NCBI GenBank assembly: GCA_949358305.1
Contig: OX442314.1
Location: 8,804,001 to 8,868,000 of the forward strand
DNA: 64,000 bases
From: Strigamia acuminata
Lineage: Eukaryota
Direction of reading: 5' to 3'
Numbering within the stretch: position 1 is the first letter of the stretch; the number at the start of each line of letters is the position of its first letter. Shown here in pieces: positions 42,988-55,100 of the stretch. The position numbers and the translations under genes were made by a program. Below the pieces are notes generated by a model that was not told where the DNA came from, did no database searches, and saw only the letters and a program-made list of their open reading frames with translations.

Positions 42988-44994
42988 ATGGTCCGAGTGG
43001 CCGTCATTGGATGCGGACTTCTCGGAGTAAACATTGCCGGTATATTTCCCTCAAATTTATTCCCTTTAAACTTAAAAATTCCGTTATTTTTTTTCAAATT
43101 TAAATTCCAGGCGAATTAGCGTACCATGGCCACCACGTTAAAATCCACGACAACGAATCACCAGCACTGGACAAAGTTCCCGAGAGACTCAAACACGAGA
43201 AACGAATGTTGGAAACCGAAGGCATTTCCTTCGATTTTAGCGTAAATTCATTCCTAAATCAAAATTAACCTCTAGTTTAGGCGCCAACTTTGAAAAATAA
43301 AATGGCACCACTATTTTCCCATACATTTGCACGTTAATTTGTAAATTATTTCGTAAATTAAAATATATTGTAGTGCAAACACGACAAAAGCAATTTTAAT
43401 GTCTCTCAGCCCGTAAATTTTGAGTTTATCGCAATTTTTGCTCAATTTTATTTCCTACAGGGTCCAGTTTACTGCCTGGGAAAATTAGAAGAAACCGTTA
43501 AAGACGTGGATTTCATTTTCGAGGCCGTCAACGACAATCTAGAAGTGAAAAAAGACATTTTTGAACGTAAAAAAGTATTGAAAAAATCAGAATTTAATTT
43601 AAATTTTCTTGTTTATTTTTTTTCCTAGGGATTTCTCACTGCTGCAGTGATGGCGCAATCATCGCCAGCAATTCGTTGAAACATGACGTGACAGATATAA
43701 GCGAAAGGACCGCGAATAAACAAGTTGAGTATGAGCGTAACGCATTGGAATGAAGTTTGTAATTTGTGCAATAATAATCATCTTTGATTGCTATCCAGCG
43801 TGTTATCGGTGTGCGTTTCCTGTACCCCGTGTACTGCATTCCGGAAGTCGAGATCTCCATGGGAAAAGACACATCCGTGCACACCTTGGACAAAGGTGCG
43901 CAAATATAGAAAGGAATGTTCGAAAAAATGCATTTTTATTCATTTATTTTTTGTCCATTTTACAATATAATATATAAAAGTACTCCGTATTTTCATTTAA
44001 AAAAATCTTACGTTTAAAATGGCGACCGGATGTAGATGCGTCGCACGTGACCGGAAACCCAAAATAAACATGGCGCCCGATGTTAATACTCGGTTTTAAC
44101 AATTTGTCGAGTTTATGAAAGTTTTTAACAGTTTCCGACGTGAATTTTTGAGTTTTTTTCATTAAAAATTAACATTTCTTCGTGATTTTGATTTGCAACA
44201 GTCCTTGCTTTGAGAATTTCTAACGACAGACCGATACCATTGCATTTACGTTGTAAAAACATTTAAAATTGTAATTTTTCGAGCATTTGGGCACCCAAAA
44301 ACGATATAAAGTCATAAATCGTGATGGAATGTGGTTAAAATAGCTTTGTGTGAATTGTTTTGACTGAATAAATTTTCTTTTTCAGTTCAGAAATTTCTGC
44401 AACGGATGGGAAAGACAATTTTTTTCCGCTCGGGCCCCACGCCTTTAATTCTGTCTGAAAGTCAAAGGGAGGAGAGAAAATGTGGTAAGGAATTGGCAAA
44501 CAACCCGTTCTCCTTTGCCTACCGGCACGTTTAATAAATGGAAATAATAACAATAAAAATAGACATAAAAAAAAAATAAAAAAATTGATTTGACTAGTAC
44601 AGTAAGACCACACTGTTTGACTCACCTACTGATTGTCAGACCCAGTTTCAACCTGAAATTAAAACAATAGAGAGAGTGTCCTTGTAAATTGATTACATGC
44701 CAAATAAATGGCGACACTAAACACTATTGTGTTTTCTATTAATCATAAAATCAATTATTTTTGATGCCGTGAAATTCAATCACAGGTTTTCGCATTTGAA
44801 TCGAACTTGGTTGCCTCCATTTTGTTTTGTGTTTGACAAGTCTCAAAATCGCTTACCGAAATCGCAAAATCACCTTTTGCTTGATTTTTTGATTTTTCGT
44901 TTTTACTCTTTGGTGTTTTCTCAATAATGCGCGTGATTGGTGGAACTGATATCACGTGACAAATCCAAAAGTGCAAAATTACAAAATTGCCTAT

Positions 44995-45025
<31 letters not shown>

Positions 45026-46472
45026 TTTTCTAGCAAGAATAGAACAAATCAGGCTGAACAGACGTTTAGGCGGGCGCACGAAATATTTTCTACCGGAACT
45101 GGCCCATTTGGGGAATTTTGCACCGGACAGAGATGACTTAACAAGTAAGTTAACCTTTTAACCAATTCTACATTTTAACTAATAGTGCCACCTGGTGTGA
45201 TAAACTGTCATGTCAGCCATTTTATCTATTATTTTTTTCCATCTAACAACAATTATTACAAAAATAAGCAAAAACCAGCTAAATACTTGACCAGAAATCT
45301 GAGTTTTGTGTTAATTTAAGCAATTCTAAGATGACAGCTGCTTGAAACAATTAATTTTAATTATTCCAAAAGCACATTCACCTACTTTTACAAGGCTTGA
45401 ATAATTTATCTCAAGTCATTGCATACCATAATGTCACTCGGAAAAAAAAATGAAGGATAGATTCAGCTCCTTGTTTAGTCAGATTGTATAATGAGCTTAG
45501 TTTGTGACATCACATAAATGCAATTTGCATTCTTATTAAACTAGCACTTAACAGTTAATAACACCTGTCTGCTCAGTCCTTAGGTTCTTCAGCAGCTAAA
45601 CATTACAGAATAAACAGCTCTTGGGTGACCTTTACACACTCATGTTAAAATTCAAAAGCAAAGAAGAAAATTAGCATATTCAGGGTTAACAAGTTAACTT
45701 CCTGCCAAGTGCCAAAACATCTTCCATGTCTTTTGACAGGGGAAAATGCCTATTGATAAGTAAAAGAATCCTGGTCTTTGTTCACATCTTCGTATCTCAA
45801 AGACGAAAGGTCCGTCTGATTAGTTGTCCCAATTGCAGGATGGGATTCGGAAAGATTTAGATGATTATTTTAATAAAAAAGTGGAAAATATTTTAACTTT
45901 TGTTCAGTTTTCGACAAAAAATTCAAAATTTTTATAAAATGTAAAGATTCGGGATTCGGGGATTCCGAACGGGATTCGAAAGCCCATGTCAGAGATTCGG
46001 TTGAATGTCGTACCCCTTATAAAAATGGATTGATTGGCCATAGAACACCATGTTAAAATATTTTGATATAACGAACTTCCGTTCTAAGTTCCAACGAACC
46101 GATTTCTCGGGTTTCTTAGTTATAACGAGGCTTGACCGCACATTTTAGCATGCTATTGGTTTGCAAATGATGATACAATATCTTACAAATTAACGATGTA
46201 ACTCTGTTGTGTTGTTTAATAAAAATGAAGATGAGTGTATGAATATATGAAAGCCTCCATTGCATGTTTGGCCCTTTGTTTCAGACGCAAACCGATCCAA
46301 TGCCGACAACGAGTGCGCCGTTTGCATGGACCACATTCGGGACTGCGTGTTCAACCCGTGTCACCACCTGAGCACCTGTGTCAAATGCGGCCATTTGCTT
46401 CTGAGCAGGGGCGAAGGTTGTCCCATCTGCCGCAAAGACATTGTCGAAATCATTCGGATTTTTCATCCTTGA
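42988..46472 (+). CDS. 3-hydroxyacyl-CoA dehydrogenase-like NAD-binding domain fused to a C-terminal RING-HC finger, ~292 aa (putative pseudoenzyme E3 ligase)
   Basis: 8 phase-consistent exons: 42988-43039, 43111-43241, 43461-43566, 43629-43723, 43799-43895, 44386-44484, 45034-45144, 46285-46472. MVRVAVIGCGLLG (GxGxxG), VKIHD, DFIFEAVNDNLEVKKDIF, IIASNSL, RVIGVRFLYP, EVEI, MGKT; then CAVCMDHIRDCVFNPCHHLSTCVKC..CPICRKDIVEIIRIFHP*. Confidence 0.9.
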
Positions 46473-49122: not shown

Positions 49123-52100
49123 TTATTGTGGTGGTTGCAAAGTCGGCGGCGGAGATTCCAGTCCTGAATCACCGACGACCGGCATCACCAACTGCGGGCC
49201 GGATATGAAGACCGTCTTGGCCAAAACCGTTTGGCCGCTCTGTGAAGTGACTGAATAAGCGTCCACATCCCCAGTAGAATTTTTCCCCTCGTTATTCACC
49301 GTCACATGCATCGTCGTCACTGTAACATTGTCGTGGTGATCGTAACCAGAAGTCGACCCGTTGTGCTCTCCGTTCTCTTCGTGCTGGGTCTTAGGGCGGA
49401 CATCCTTGTTTGGAGACGGCGTTCTCGACAGTTCCCTCGTGCTGATGATCGGCGGGATTATTGGAATCGTAATAGTAGGACTGCGCGCTGGACTAATAGC
49501 CACCAAGCCAGAGTTTGGCCTCAGATTGGTCACCGATGCCGTTGTTGTCGCCACAACTTCTTCGTCGCTTTCGGAATCATCGTAGGTCTTAATGGATGGA
49601 TCTATCGACAACATATGTCGCTTCGGTTTCATCGGCTCGTTTTCGATGCTGTCTTCAGACAAGGAAGAACTCGACATCGAAGAGCTTCTGTTCAGAGGCA
49701 CGGCTATCAGAGTTACATCATTGTTCACCTCATTCTGCTTCTCCAAGTACTTCTCTATCTTGCCCCTATCGAGGTTCTCCTTCACCCACTTCTCCAAACC
49801 AGAGGATATCTCTAGTTTCTCTTTGTTAGCTGCTTCCTGTGATGTCTTTGTGAAATAAGTGCTGAAGAGCTGTTGATCGCTCGACTTATCGGCCTCTTCC
49901 AATTCGTCGGAATTGTTCAACTCCATAGAGACAGCCCTCTCCAAAGGAAGAGACTTAGTGTCTTCGATCTTCGTCAAGTCGTCCAACGAAGCCGTTCGTC
50001 TGGATGAAGTTGCTTTGTCACTACCGGATCCTGTCTGGATCAATCCGCTCCGGGGTATGGAGTTAAACCGTTCATCCCCACAGGCCTTATCCAAACCCTC
50101 ATCATAATTTGTCTTGATAATGGCGCTCAAGGGCAAATAGCCTCCAGCAACTTCCACCCTACTCCTTTTGGGAGATTTTGGTTCGGGCGAAGGACTACCG
50201 GAGTTCACCTGAACACTGGTAACATTGTTCGGCTTCAAGAAAACCACAGACTTGGAGTGGTTTTGGTCCGAAAAGGTCAAGCTCGCCTGGGATGGAATTC
50301 CCTCGACAAACGGATTGCCTACACCACCCTCGATTTCCGTTGGCGACGACGGTTGGGACGAAGGTGGTTGTGGAGCTCGTCTTTTTCCTGCTATTGGATT
50401 CCGCTTCGGCTTCAGCTTGGGTGAATTCTGCAATACCTTCTGCATCTTGGACTCAAAGTATGTTATGTTTTCGTCCAGGGAATCATCGCTGCTAGACTTC
50501 CGATTGATGTCCCCTTCAAAATCTGCCGCCGAGGGCGTTTTCAGATCAACCCGAGGCAGAATGACGGTTTTTTCCGGTTCAACTTGGTCGGCAAGGAGGT
50601 TTTCTTCACTCAATTTCCGAACAATCGTCTGCTTGATAGAACTCAAGTCCGGCTGCCGCGACAACGCTTCCGGACTTTCTTTCGCATTCTTCATTGCCTC
50701 ATCAAGACTTATCTGCACATCGTCCAAATCCATGGCTGGAATGTCAAAATTCTTCAACGTATCTTCGCTGGTTAGTTCTCGGATAAATGTACGTCTTGCG
50801 TCCGGAATGTCCACTCTGGGACCACTTCCAGCATCGACTTCGTGGATCGCATGCGGGGAATCTGCAGGAACCACACAAGGGCCTAAAACCGGCGTCACTT
50901 CATCTTCCTTTCTATCACTAGAAGCAACTGTGGACAATCCGAAGGTCGGAATTTCAATAGTCAAATCTTGCGGAGGAATGAACGCAGTGGAAGTTTGTGT
51001 CGACAATCTTCGATTTTCAGCTTGACTGTCGACAAAGGGATTGTAGTTGTTGCTTTTCACTGCATGTTTCTGCACCTCGTTGACCTCGACAGAAACTACG
51101 GTTTCGTTATTAGCCTTGTCGTGTGCAGGCACTTCACCCTCTTTGATTGGCTCCACCCTTTGGGCCACTCCAGTACCAACAACTTTGCCTCGTGGACCCA
51201 AAACCCCAACACTTAAAGAACGTTTGTTACTCCCGGTGTCACGGGATAGCTGACTCACGTCATCACTCGATTGGCTCCGGTAAACTGGGTGCGACAATAC
51301 TTCGGCGCCCACCATGCCCGTACCTGACACCGAACTTGATGTTGAGCCTCTTTTCTGATGACCAGGTAGAAATGGTGCACCTGATTGCTCAGACGTCTTC
51401 TGTATGTACAAAGTGACATCGTATGGAGATGCATAACTAAGAATAGTCAAAGCATCTTCGATGGTGATTTGGTCGAAACACACAGACACTCCCAGGATAC
51501 GATCACCTAAAACAAAAAGTGTATGTATAAGTATAAGTAGTATGACACTTAGCATAGTCAGTGCCCCATAAGTAGAATACCTATAATGCTTAAATGCTCT
51601 GAATTATGGGTACATCTGTTCACCATTTCAGTGTCATTTCTTTATCCTCGTCAGACCTAACCTTGCATTTGCACCGAGAACCGGGGAAAACCACAGAAAA
51701 CCCAGTTGGAGGCGAGTTCCATAGAAACAGTACCTTAGTCAGACCTAGGTCAATCAACTACAGGACTTCTCATCCGCCAATTTTTGAAATCTAACTTATC
51801 TCTTACAATTACGAAGGAGCCGTCTGTCGTCACAATGTGAAAACTTCTTTTGGGGAAATGGCGAGCAGCTGACATCCCGCATTTACATTTATGACGGACG
51901 TTACAACGTAGTTCAATTTTATTTAATGTTTGATTTAAAAATATCATCTAAAAATTTAATAAATACGGAGTAATTTTCAGACATTATTTTTAACTTCAAA
52001 CTACCGCTTTATAATGTCATCTAAAAATCTAAATGCGCGATGTCAGTTGTCCGCCATTTGCCCGCACAATAACGTTACTTGTGCCGCTTCGGCTGGATGG

Positions 52101-55100
52101 CGCCACGATCGCAAGACAAAATCGCATTACAGTCTAACAATTAAATTGTGCTAGATGGGAAGTCCTGTAGTTGATCGTCCTAGGTCAGACAAACGAGATT
52201 CAATTGTCATAGCCCCTGTTGAGGATAATATCTTGAAAATACAGTCGAAACTCTTTATAACGAATCGCAAGGAACCCGAAAAATCAATTCGTTATAACGA
52301 GAATTTGTTACATCGACATTATTTAACATGGTGTTCTATGGCCAGCCAACCAAACCAGCCACCTTTAGGTATTCGTTACATCGATAATTCGTTATATCGC
52401 GATTCGTTATAAAGAGTTTCGACTGTATCTAAAATCAAGAGAGATCTTTCGATCTTGCGATTATCTTTAGTGGTGTGATTTTTAGACCATATCATGCTTA
52501 GATGTGCACAATGTCAACGTCTGCACATGTATGCAAGAAGAAAGTATCAGCATGAGGCGTAAAAAGGTTATTGCTTTAACATTTGCCAGAAGATGGAGCA
52601 AAAACTCTGACTAGTCAGCAACTATTAACTGCATTGTCAGAATGACTAACAGAAAGACTCCAATAAAGCATCAACTGCATTCAAAAAGAAAGCTTGGTCA
52701 GTTAACAGCAGTGAACCACCCACAACAATAAATCAATTTTAAAGCTTTTAAAACTCCCCATTGGTCAAAATAAAAAATCAACCAAAACCTGTAAATACAT
52801 TTTCTAAGGCTCAATAATAACAATAAATAAAAAAAAATAAAGTAAACAAATAAATACAAGAAATCAGAAGAAAAAAAAATGACGCAATGCTAAAAAAAAA
52901 ATGTGCCAATATCAATGTCAAGGTAAACCTGCAGCTCTGGCCTCTTCTATGAAAAACACTGCAATCCAAGGTCACAACGTGAAAATTCCGCTAGGGGCGC
53001 TTACACTGGGTCCCGCGACCTCCAAATCAAGAAATCAGAAATGTGACAGACATAATGTTGTAATTCCAAACCATTTCATAATAAATAGAAATTTAAAAAA
53101 ATCTAAAATTTAAAATAACTTGTCAGAGATTTGACTTTTATGTTGGATAATATTCCTGAGTGTGGTTGGAGGTCCCCCTGGTGGAGAAAAAGTGATATGA
53201 TAGTTGAGAAATTGGTTTTGGAGTTAATTCTTGCTGCTTGACATGGCCAAGGGTGAAAGTGAAGAATGCTCTCTCTTCACCCCTGCAACCATAAATCTGA
53301 GGCAATGCCAAGCATGGTGTCAGAACATTGTGTATGTACTATTTAGGTGGCAGGGGGTACATGTTTTTCAAGTTTGGAGTTTAAAGGGATTGTTGGAATT
53401 TTGGGTCTTTAAGGGTTTGATTGGGAAATCAAAGTGGGGAGTAGAGTTTGGGCAGTGGTAATTAATTTTGAGGGAAAATAGTTTATTGGTGGTTTTGTGG
53501 TTTTGGAATTTTTCTGGCAAGTTTTTGCAGTTTTTCTACAGAATTTGTTCAAATTATGCTTGGTTTTCTCAAAGTTTGTTTTAATTTTCTAGTTTTTGGA
53601 CACATTTTGCAGTTTTTGAGCAAACTTTACAGTTTTGACAATTTTTGTTATTGTTTTAGAATTTTGTTTTGCAGATTTTGTTCAAATTTTGCAGTTTTCA
53701 TTCAAATTTTGCAGTTTTAATTTAAATTTTGCCAATTTCCTTCAAAATTCTGCAATTTTCACCAACATTTTGCAATTTCCCTTCAAAATTCTGCAATTTC
53801 CTTCAAATTTTGCCAATTTCCTTCAAATTTTGCCAATTTCCTTCAAATTTTTGCAAATTTCCTTCAAATTTTGCCAATTTCCTTCAAATTTTGCAATTTC
53901 CTTCAAATTTTGCCAATTTCCACCAACATTTTGCATTTTCCTTCAAAATTCTGCAATTTCCACCAACATTTTGCAATTTCCCCTTAAAATTTCGCCAATT
54001 TCATCTCCATTCTCTCTTTTCTAAATCCAACCAAGTTGAATAAACAAAATCACCCACTTTCAAAATTGAAATCCTTTGTGTAGTTGAAGGGTTATTACAC
54101 ACAACTTAATGAAACACCAATTCCTCTCAATGCCAATTACACTTTGCTGCCCTCAGGTGCAAAATCACCGCCTCAATCTCATTTATCCGGTCAAGATGAC
54201 CACATCTCAAGGTCGCCAGTCCAACTGGGCGTGGCACACAGCACCGCATCAACAAAACCGGAAGTGACGTCTCCCAAAACCATTGCACTACGCTACTCAC
54301 CAGCTTTAATTTTGCCCGATTCACTCGCGGGACCTCGGTGCAGCACGTCACGCACGTAGATGCCGTGGCGTATGTTTCCACAAATGTTGAAACCGAGGCC
54401 TGTGAAGTCACAGCCGCGCAAACTAACTTCTAATTTTTCCGGCTCCTAATCAAATAGAATAGAAAACAATAATCAGTAAACAGTAAAAGTAACTAAAGTA
54501 GGGTTTCGGTACCGGGGTACCGATTTCCCGGGGAAACCCGGTGAGAAATCACGGTACCGGGAACTGAGAATTTTGAGAAATACCGGTTTCGTCAAAAATT
54601 CGTTGCTAATTTTCGTCATTGAAACGTTTGACGAAAAATGGCTAAAAATGGCTATTTTTGACAAAAAAGACCATTTTTACCATGAAAAATGGCTAAAAAT
54701 GACCATTTTTGACAAAATACAGCCATTTTTACCACGAAAAATGGCTAAAAATGACCATTTTTGACAAAATACAGCCATTTTTGTGAATGAATTTAAACAC
54801 TGAAATAAGTAATTGCGCGATTGTTTGATTGAAAGACAAAAGAGCTTTATTGTTTGCGTGTTGTTGTCCTTGACAACAGTCTTGTACAAATGGATGATTA
54901 AAATGAGTGACATTTCTTCTTTTTCAACGTTTAAATGATTGTGGTTATTTCCGGTTGTACCAACAATTTTTACCATGAAAAATGGCTAAAAATGACCATT
55001 TTTGACAAAAAACGGCCATTTATTGTCATTTTTCGTCGCCTCTCGCCTGACTTTTTTTTAGTCTTGGGAGTACCGATTTCCCGGGAGTACCGGCCATTTC

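Follow-up and report, generated by a model that had tools for sequence, protein, structure and literature searches.

We analysed a 64,000-nucleotide stretch of the Strigamia acuminata genome (contig OX442314.1, positions 8,804,001 to 8,868,000 of the forward strand; hereafter the window, with coordinates counted from its first letter) and found that eight exons within 42988-46472 encode a protein of 292 residues, in which a Rossmann domain of the 3-hydroxyacyl-CoA dehydrogenase (HAD) type with a remodelled active site is fused to a C-terminal RING finger. We propose, with a probability of about 0.5, that the product works as a ubiquitin ligase in the cytosol, that its Rossmann domain would bind NAD(H) or an ADP-ribose nucleotide, and that the nucleotide-loaded open cleft would recruit the target. 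The gene belongs to a real, old gene family that is apparently unstudied.

The dehydrogenase-RING gene is a single gene of eight exons

All seven introns are of the GT-AG type, and the exons join to 879 nt (292 codons and a stop), as expected for the in-frame open reading frame proposed in the initial annotation of this DNA. Residue numbering relative to HAD was fixed by alignment to human HAD chains. The parts of the gene are:

Exon 1, 42988-43039, + strand: start codon and Rossmann glycine loop, with G8, G10, L12 (HAD Met26) and G13; strand A is encoded without a preceding presequence
Exon 2, 43111-43241, + strand: strand B with D31 (HAD Asp45), then a long helix
Exon 3, 43461-43566, + strand: E82 (Glu106), D86 (Glu110, the nicotinamide-ribose contact) and K91 (Lys115)
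Exon 4, 43629-43723, + strand: N111 (Asn135), and L113 in place of the catalytic Ser137 (codon 43676-43678)
Exon 5, 43799-43895, + strand: remodelled active site, with R134 for His158 (codon 43814-43816) and Y137 for Asn161; also E144, which is animal-specific, and E146 (Glu170)
Exon 6, 44386-44484, + strand: end of the Rossmann domain, animal-conserved segment and start of a helix
Intron 6, 44485-45033, + strand: contains a high-copy repeat (about 44765-45066)
Exon 7, 45034-45144, + strand: end of the helix and predicted disordered linker, with P214 and L216 conserved
Intron 7, 45145-46284, + strand: 1140 nt, phase 1; contains high-copy repeats (about 45822-46274)
Exon 8, 46285-46472, + strand: C3HC4 RING C241-C279 (46314-46430), linchpin R280, tail with R288 and F290, stop codon

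When the exons were searched singly against Pfam, exons 1, 3, 4 and 5 matched consecutive parts of PF02737 (3HCDH_N; profile positions 2-23, 72-98, 100-129 and 131-161; E 0.087 to 1.8e-4, each below the gathering score), exon 8 matched PF13920 (zf-C3HC4_3) at E 4e-13, and exons 2, 6 and 7 gave no match. Two DNA runs from one study covered all exons at about equal depth with no listed exonic difference; these runs are possibly the window's own source and therefore argue against base errors only. The interspersed repeats of introns 6 and 7 reached depths up to several hundred-fold that of the exons.

Since the RING exon lies 1140 nt downstream, beyond a repeat-filled intron, the architecture could be an artefact in which a decayed dehydrogenase gene adjoins a separate RING gene. 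A seed query consisting of exon 5 and a few flanking residues retrieved 3 proteins of 282-293 residues among 7 candidates, all of which carried both domains. A profile built from these 3 proteins matched 180 of 7996 scored proteins at E ≤1e-20, and 120 of these 180 were listed; the 120 listed proteins, which are animal-type, are the close homologues referred to below. Most are about 293 residues long with both Pfam domains, and they are 39-58% identical to the spliced window protein. One of 80 metagenome loci (L001) carries the full frame without introns on 1105 nt. In 41 fetched loci, many of them near-copies from related animals, a script called 103 splice junctions, of which 90 agree in position and phase with the seven introns of the window gene and 13 lie elsewhere; all seven positions were found again in loci of other animals, with intron 7 compared across a poorly aligned linker at an offset of 1-2 residues. 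On a single contig (L054 with L017), six matching junctions run from the Rossmann exons through the RING exon. Because of the level of identity in 120 homologues and the 90 matching junctions, the architecture of the window gene is not a matter of chance. The sequence comparison thus confirms that the eight-exon model is sound and that the RING and Rossmann exons belong to one gene, as the initial annotation had assumed, and leaves the two-gene artefact with a negligible probability.

The Rossmann domain lacks the catalytic His and Ser of HAD

In HAD, His158 takes the proton, Glu170 anchors His158, Met26 stacks on the nicotinamide, and catalysis requires domain closure against the dimerisation domain (PMC10988713); the equivalent of Ser137 is essential for catalysis, and Ser137 and His158 face the nicotinamide (PMC6333283). 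Alignment with human HAD chains bore out the three changes first read from the window, Ser to Leu (L113), His to Arg (R134) and Asn to Tyr (Y137). The His158 position is Arg in 120/120 close homologues, the Ser137 position is Leu, Met or Ile (79, 36 and 5 proteins, respectively), and the Asn161 position is Phe, Tyr or His. E146, the equivalent of the His-orienting Glu170, is kept in all 120. For comparison, 98% of the 119 enzyme rows that bear the His have Ser at the Ser137 position. To count residues in the His158 column we used 335 domain rows from 324 proteins, with 36 members of 90% clusters dropped and rows gapped at this column left out: RING-bearing proteins showed 178 Arg, 2 other residues and no His (180 rows), and RING-less proteins showed 121 His, 27 Arg and 7 other residues (155 rows). 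An annelid copy (P0151) has Gln at the Arg position.

PF02737 was matched with 127.5 bits in a full-length member (P0025; cut-off 22), and the dimerisation domain PF00725 gave no match at E 0.1 in one full-length member nor at E 0.001 in 20 more. The two Pfam domains expected in the window protein are both matched by its exons, and the claim that the helical dimerisation domain is gone, with a RING at the C-terminus, agrees with the absence of PF00725 and with a structural model (below) in which the Rossmann domain is followed by one helix, then by a loose linker and finally by the RING. By sequence, the family descends from the HAD family and yet is not a member of it as an enzyme, since three features that define HAD enzymes are absent.

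Nowhere in the Rossmann domain is conservation higher than at the remodelled site (174 family rows: Arg 99%, Phe 95%, Leu 97%, Pro 100%, Val 99%, and Glu at the Glu170 position 97%). The initial annotation had called the domain catalytically dead. This description holds for HAD chemistry only, for which His, Ser and the dimerisation domain are gone; it does not hold for a wholly inactive site, because a site that is almost invariant has a job, possibly a catalytic one. The protein may accordingly combine an enzyme with a ligase: NAD(H) would still be used, the Arg-Glu pair would clamp an anionic substrate or a modified protein residue, and the RING would then ubiquitinate what is clamped, the chemistries considered being redox, NAD cleavage or ADP-ribose handling. 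The degree of conservation of the former active site, the retention of the Glu that oriented His158 and that of the NAD contacts all fit such an enzyme. On the other hand, hydride transfer in HAD requires closure of a lid domain, which the family lacks, the Ser137 position is bulky and hydrophobic in nearly every row, and Arg is, by textbook chemistry, a poor general base; we regard this alternative as a live but rather unlikely one.

A ligase that senses acyl-CoA, which had been put forward together with NAD(H) sensing, was not borne out and is very unlikely. Descent from acyl-CoA-binding enzymes speaks for it, but the position of HAD Lys68, a residue that we take to have a CoA role, is acidic in 109/119 listed close homologues. 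Moreover, the pantetheine tunnel of HAD is built in part by the dimerisation domains (PMC5715344), whose tunnel-forming loops are absent in the family.

Most NAD-contact residues and the dehydrogenase fold are retained

At most NAD-contact positions, conservation in the family is as strict as in the enzymes. G8, G10 and G13 are each found in 100% of the family (141-149 rows), the strand-B Asp (D31) in 93% of 161 rows and Lys at the Lys115 position in 100% of 174 rows; the three loop Gly and Lys115 are also at 100% in a distant set (36-48 rows), and the Glu110 position is acidic in 174/174 rows. An acidic residue at this place in strand B indicates NAD and not NADP. The initial annotation had listed retained dinucleotide-binding features, and they are indeed retained; as a refinement within the motif, the equivalent of the ribose-binding Glu110 is D86 and not the Glu of the "EA" pair (E82, which corresponds to Glu106). 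In HAD, Glu110 binds the nicotinamide ribose (PMC5715344). The pattern of residue conservation suggests that HAD chemistry has gone, that the ADP-ribose half of the pocket has been kept, and that the nicotinamide face has been rebuilt under strong selection.

The fold was examined in the Capitella orthologue, which shares 56% identity with the window protein and stands in for it; its AlphaFold model (105-row alignment) had a mean predicted local distance difference test score (pLDDT) of 88.8 and a predicted template modelling score of 0.67. The model comprises the Rossmann domain to about residue 176, a helix at 187-204, a low-confidence linker (pLDDT <50 at 208-219 and 225-235) and then the RING. 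Superposition on HAD-family NAD domains yields Z 24-28, whereas the next family reaches Z 19; NAD-bound HAD/HBD structures give Z 26-28 (maximum 27.8) at a root-mean-square deviation of about 2 Å over about 183 residues. The common NAD-binding fold (human HAD 1f0y; bacterial HBD 4kug, 6aa8 and 9fbd; PF02737 with PF00725) thus comes with shared residues, namely the Gly loop, Asp45, Glu106, the acidic Glu110 position, Lys115 and Glu170, and the family differs from HAD in His158 to Arg, Ser137 to Leu/Met/Ile, an aromatic residue for Asn161, the lack of PF00725 and the C-terminal RING. We also observed that E144 (43844-43846) and F173-L183 (44421-44453) are invariant or nearly so in the 120 close homologues (F173, R175 and L183 of exon 6 in 120/120) and variable in distant members; these residues may form an animal-specific partner surface.

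In the model, the helix after the Rossmann domain occupies the position where the dimerisation domain would start. Among the top 50 rows of the structure search, only 3ado, 3f3s and 4om8 align over about 200 residues, to model residue 203-204 and to their own C-terminal end, such that the last helix of the L-gulonate 3-dehydrogenase/lambda-crystallin CRYL1 (3ado, 3f3s) and of FHMPC dehydrogenase (4om8) coincides with the post-Rossmann helix of the family. CRYL1 and FHMPC dehydrogenase are dimeric enzymes with the catalytic His. When the post-Rossmann helix was compared by profile with the C-terminal helix from 22 CRYL1/FHMPCDH-like proteins, the match was not significant (probability 0.3%), so that shared descent of the helix is unproven, and the modelled overlap gives a hint of an origin from a CRYL1-like ancestor by loss of the middle domain.

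The RING finger resembles those of C-terminal RING ligases

The window RING reads C241-x2-C244-x11-C256-x-H258-x3-C262-x2-C265-x10-C276-x2-C279, which is the spacing originally noted. All eight zinc ligands are present in 178/185 RING-flagged proteins, with 11/3/10 spacing in 162. Linchpin Arg is found in 175/178 RINGs, a tail of exactly 13 residues past the last Cys in 153/178, and Tyr or Phe at tail position 11 in 145/178; together with R280 and F290 of the window protein, these counts uphold the likeness to IAP and MDM2 tails that had been pointed out. Nearest among solved RINGs are MUL1 (E 3.5e-8) and MGRN1 (4.8e-8), followed by MDM4, cIAP1, cIAP2, MDM2 and XIAP. In cIAP1, linchpin Arg606 and the partner-subunit tail residues Arg614 and Phe616 stabilise the closed E2~ubiquitin (PMC6349121), and R280, R288 and F290 of the window protein are spaced in the same way. 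The domain therefore qualifies by its sequence as a PF13920-type RING E3 and resembles the C-terminal RING-HC ligases of the MUL1/MGRN1/IAP/MDM2 type, with which it shares the cIAP1 linchpin and tail spacing. Neither BIR nor any domain besides Rossmann and RING was found in full-length members, all 292 residues being accounted for; in contrast to the IAP family, the recruiting module here would be a domain from a metabolic enzyme.

In both trees described below, P0255, a protein with an Arg-type domain, lies inside the family. Instead of a RING it carries a U-box (E 6e-11), and this one sequence points to E2 recruitment as the conserved job. The presence of MDM4 among the nearest solved RINGs could mean that the RING is no active ligase and serves as a scaffold or an MDM4-like partner, an interpretation that is highly improbable in view of the near-constant linchpin Arg and the U-box replacement. 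The Capitella homodimer, modelled together with NAD and zinc, scored 0.00 in two runs made without the alignment and without folded controls, which speaks neither for nor against a RING dimer.

The family is widespread among eukaryotes

Named members among the listed profile matches come from chelicerates, a millipede, a barnacle, a priapulid, molluscs, annelids, a brachiopod, nemerteans, a flatworm, rotifers, echinoderms, hemichordates and corals. Further members are from jellyfish, a choanoflagellate, the haptophyte Emiliania, the euglenid Peranema and the cryptophyte Hanusia, as well as two sponges, amphioxus, a second choanoflagellate and the green alga Pterosperma. The fusion and the His-to-Arg change, the conservation of which had been in question, are thus both conserved from sponges to amphioxus and in protists. 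A HMMER search of 1.84 billion representatives returned 117 proteins at E ≤1e-30, in which family members and ordinary enzymes were mixed, and the ESM Atlas groups the architecture in a single cluster with an automatic name, whose 152 members are all eukaryotic. Database names include 3-hydroxybutyryl-CoA dehydrogenase-like, L-carnitine dehydrogenase, lambda-crystallin homolog and RING-type domain-containing protein, so that misleading automatic dehydrogenase labels, which had been predicted, do exist. Several members have additional features: P0202 and P0227 carry a kinase fragment ahead of the pseudo-dehydrogenase and RING, P0157 is a tandem duplication of the whole pseudo-dehydrogenase-RING unit, and P0095 has a PX domain in front, perhaps through merged gene models.

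Vertebrate, insect, nematode, fungal and land-plant names were absent from the named rows (many rows are nameless, 60 of the 180 matches are unlisted, and 23 proteins were looked up), which makes loss of the family in these groups a lead only. In prokaryotic genomes, 77 pattern matches yielded 6 confirmed relatives, all N-terminal only and ending by residue 130, none of which reach the Arg motif or the RING, and in viral contigs none of 10 pattern matches was confirmed; as the patterns were derived from animals, both scans are weak evidence of absence.

A FastTree analysis of the Rossmann domain alone (157 rows) placed 68/68 RING-bearing rows and 8 Arg rows without detected RING on one side with support 99. 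When the motif columns were removed, 4 changes were needed in FastTree and 1 change in IQ-TREE (60 chosen rows), the latter on a branch with support 18. These trees are compatible with a single origin of the RING-bearing family and do not prove it. The window protein clusters loosely with the millipede and amphioxus proteins (FastTree support 84). The spread over distant groups suggests an early eukaryotic origin, the alternative being transfer between protists.

A proposed model of a nucleotide-dependent ubiquitin ligase

We propose a mechanism in three steps. First, the RING would very probably activate E2~ubiquitin, presumably as a tail-assisted dimer of the IAP/MDM2 kind. Second, the Rossmann domain is likely to bind a NAD-type dinucleotide. 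Third, the loss of the lid domain would leave the nicotinamide face and the invariant Arg-Phe-Leu-x-Pro-Val...Glu surface exposed, and a partner protein could dock there; nucleotide occupancy or redox state would set target capture, and the loose linker would let the RING reach the docked target. More speculatively, with Arg at the His position, NADH or ADP-ribose would be expected to fit better than NAD+ with its cationic ring. As animal members have no presequence and no recognisable C-terminal peroxisomal signal, we infer a cytosolic location.

Several points weigh against this mechanism. The three steps draw on conservation, and a site this invariant could be catalytic, or the nucleotide could be a constant structural cofactor that senses nothing. 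Within the pocket, the nicotinamide-facing Ser137 and His158 are replaced, as is Asn161; the Glu110 position is Asp in 26% of the family, including D86 of the window protein, compared to Glu in 99% of 119 enzyme rows, and the Asn135 position is Asn in 75% and Ser in 18% of the family. The equivalent of Glu110 is also anchored to the Ser137 loop (PMC5715344), and several residues counted as "NAD" residues hold the fold as well. Regarding the link between Arg and RING, 27 Arg rows have no detected RING, 13 of which end <80 residues after the Arg; the others comprise 4 with a U-box or a divergent or partial RING, 3 of enzyme type and 7 that are unexplained or from doubtful gene models. In addition, the 178-to-0 split between Arg and His seems to reflect one ancestral event and not many.

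The replaced nicotinamide-side residues and the relaxation of Glu110 to Asp would equally suit a plain substrate receptor, in which the Rossmann fold is a protein-binding module with nucleotide absent or structural and without sensing. Many E3s employ borrowed folds as plain adaptors. However, an empty pocket is unlikely to need the second loop Gly, the strand-B Asp and Lys115 at 93-100% across distant eukaryotes, and we give the plain receptor a low probability, the same as that of the enzyme-plus-ligase alternative.

Within the proposed nucleotide-dependent ligase, one tentative and rather doubtful extension is that NADH (or ADP-ribose) serves as a molecular glue, which together with the invariant Arg would form the surface on which the target docks. 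Degradation would then read cytosolic NADH/NAD+ directly, and the family, which might date back to the last eukaryotic common ancestor, would be missing from the usual model organisms.

Neighbouring genes

A calmodulin-lysine N-methyltransferase (CaMKMT)-like gene (42007-42505, - strand; one exon matches 4pwy at E 1.5e-4) appears to lie head-to-head with the dehydrogenase-RING gene, its start being about 480 nt upstream, which suggests a shared promoter region. Other features of the window are:

1-444, + strand: 3' end of a gene with an Argonaute/Piwi domain (PF02171, E 9e-27)
3893-4733, - strand: broken frames, which we take to resemble a pogo/Tigger-type transposase
About 7400-10800, - strand: gene for a protein kinase, one exon of which matches PF00069; it may be of MSK/RPS6KA5 type
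49126-54445, - strand: 826-codon open frame without Pfam match and a PDZ exon upstream, which we assume may form one DLG5-like gene

None of the neighbours (CaMKMT-like, kinase, Argonaute and PDZ protein) offers a functional clue for the dehydrogenase-RING gene.

Relation to known systems and significance

No description of the 3HCDH-RING architecture was found in the literature searched, a scope that excluded subscription journals and supplements, whose domain tables may list the pair; the main text of PMC3499355 does not contain "3HCDH", and that of a paper on the human E3-ome (PMC13061254) contains neither "dehydrogenase" nor "Rossmann". Within this scope, the statement that no characterised protein has a dehydrogenase-RING architecture stands. 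Since the domain pair itself is already visible in automatic annotation, what is new is that its bearers are recognised as an ancient family of pseudoenzyme E3s. Dehydrogenase folds have reportedly been reused in NmrA/HSCARG, CtBP and Rex, where bound NAD(P)(H) is said to control partner binding; these belong to other Rossmann families, and to our knowledge none of them carries a fused E3 domain. MARCHF6, a RING ligase directly controlled by NADPH, sets a precedent for nucleotide control (commentary PMC9583509). It differs in being a membrane protein of the endoplasmic reticulum that binds NADPH through a short regulatory region and has no Rossmann pseudoenzyme, whereas the strand-B Asp points to NAD here.

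The protein is small and has two domains, so that tests of binding, ligase activity and structure would be simple. At the least, a whole family is mislabelled as fatty-acid or carnitine dehydrogenases, which would distort metabolic readings of invertebrate transcriptomes. If the proposed mechanism is true, the family would provide a direct and soluble link between the NAD pool and ubiquitin-dependent control, made from the fold of a core beta-oxidation enzyme and kept from protists to amphioxus; the nucleotide-sensing E3 met in the literature search, MARCHF6, works with NADPH and by another device.

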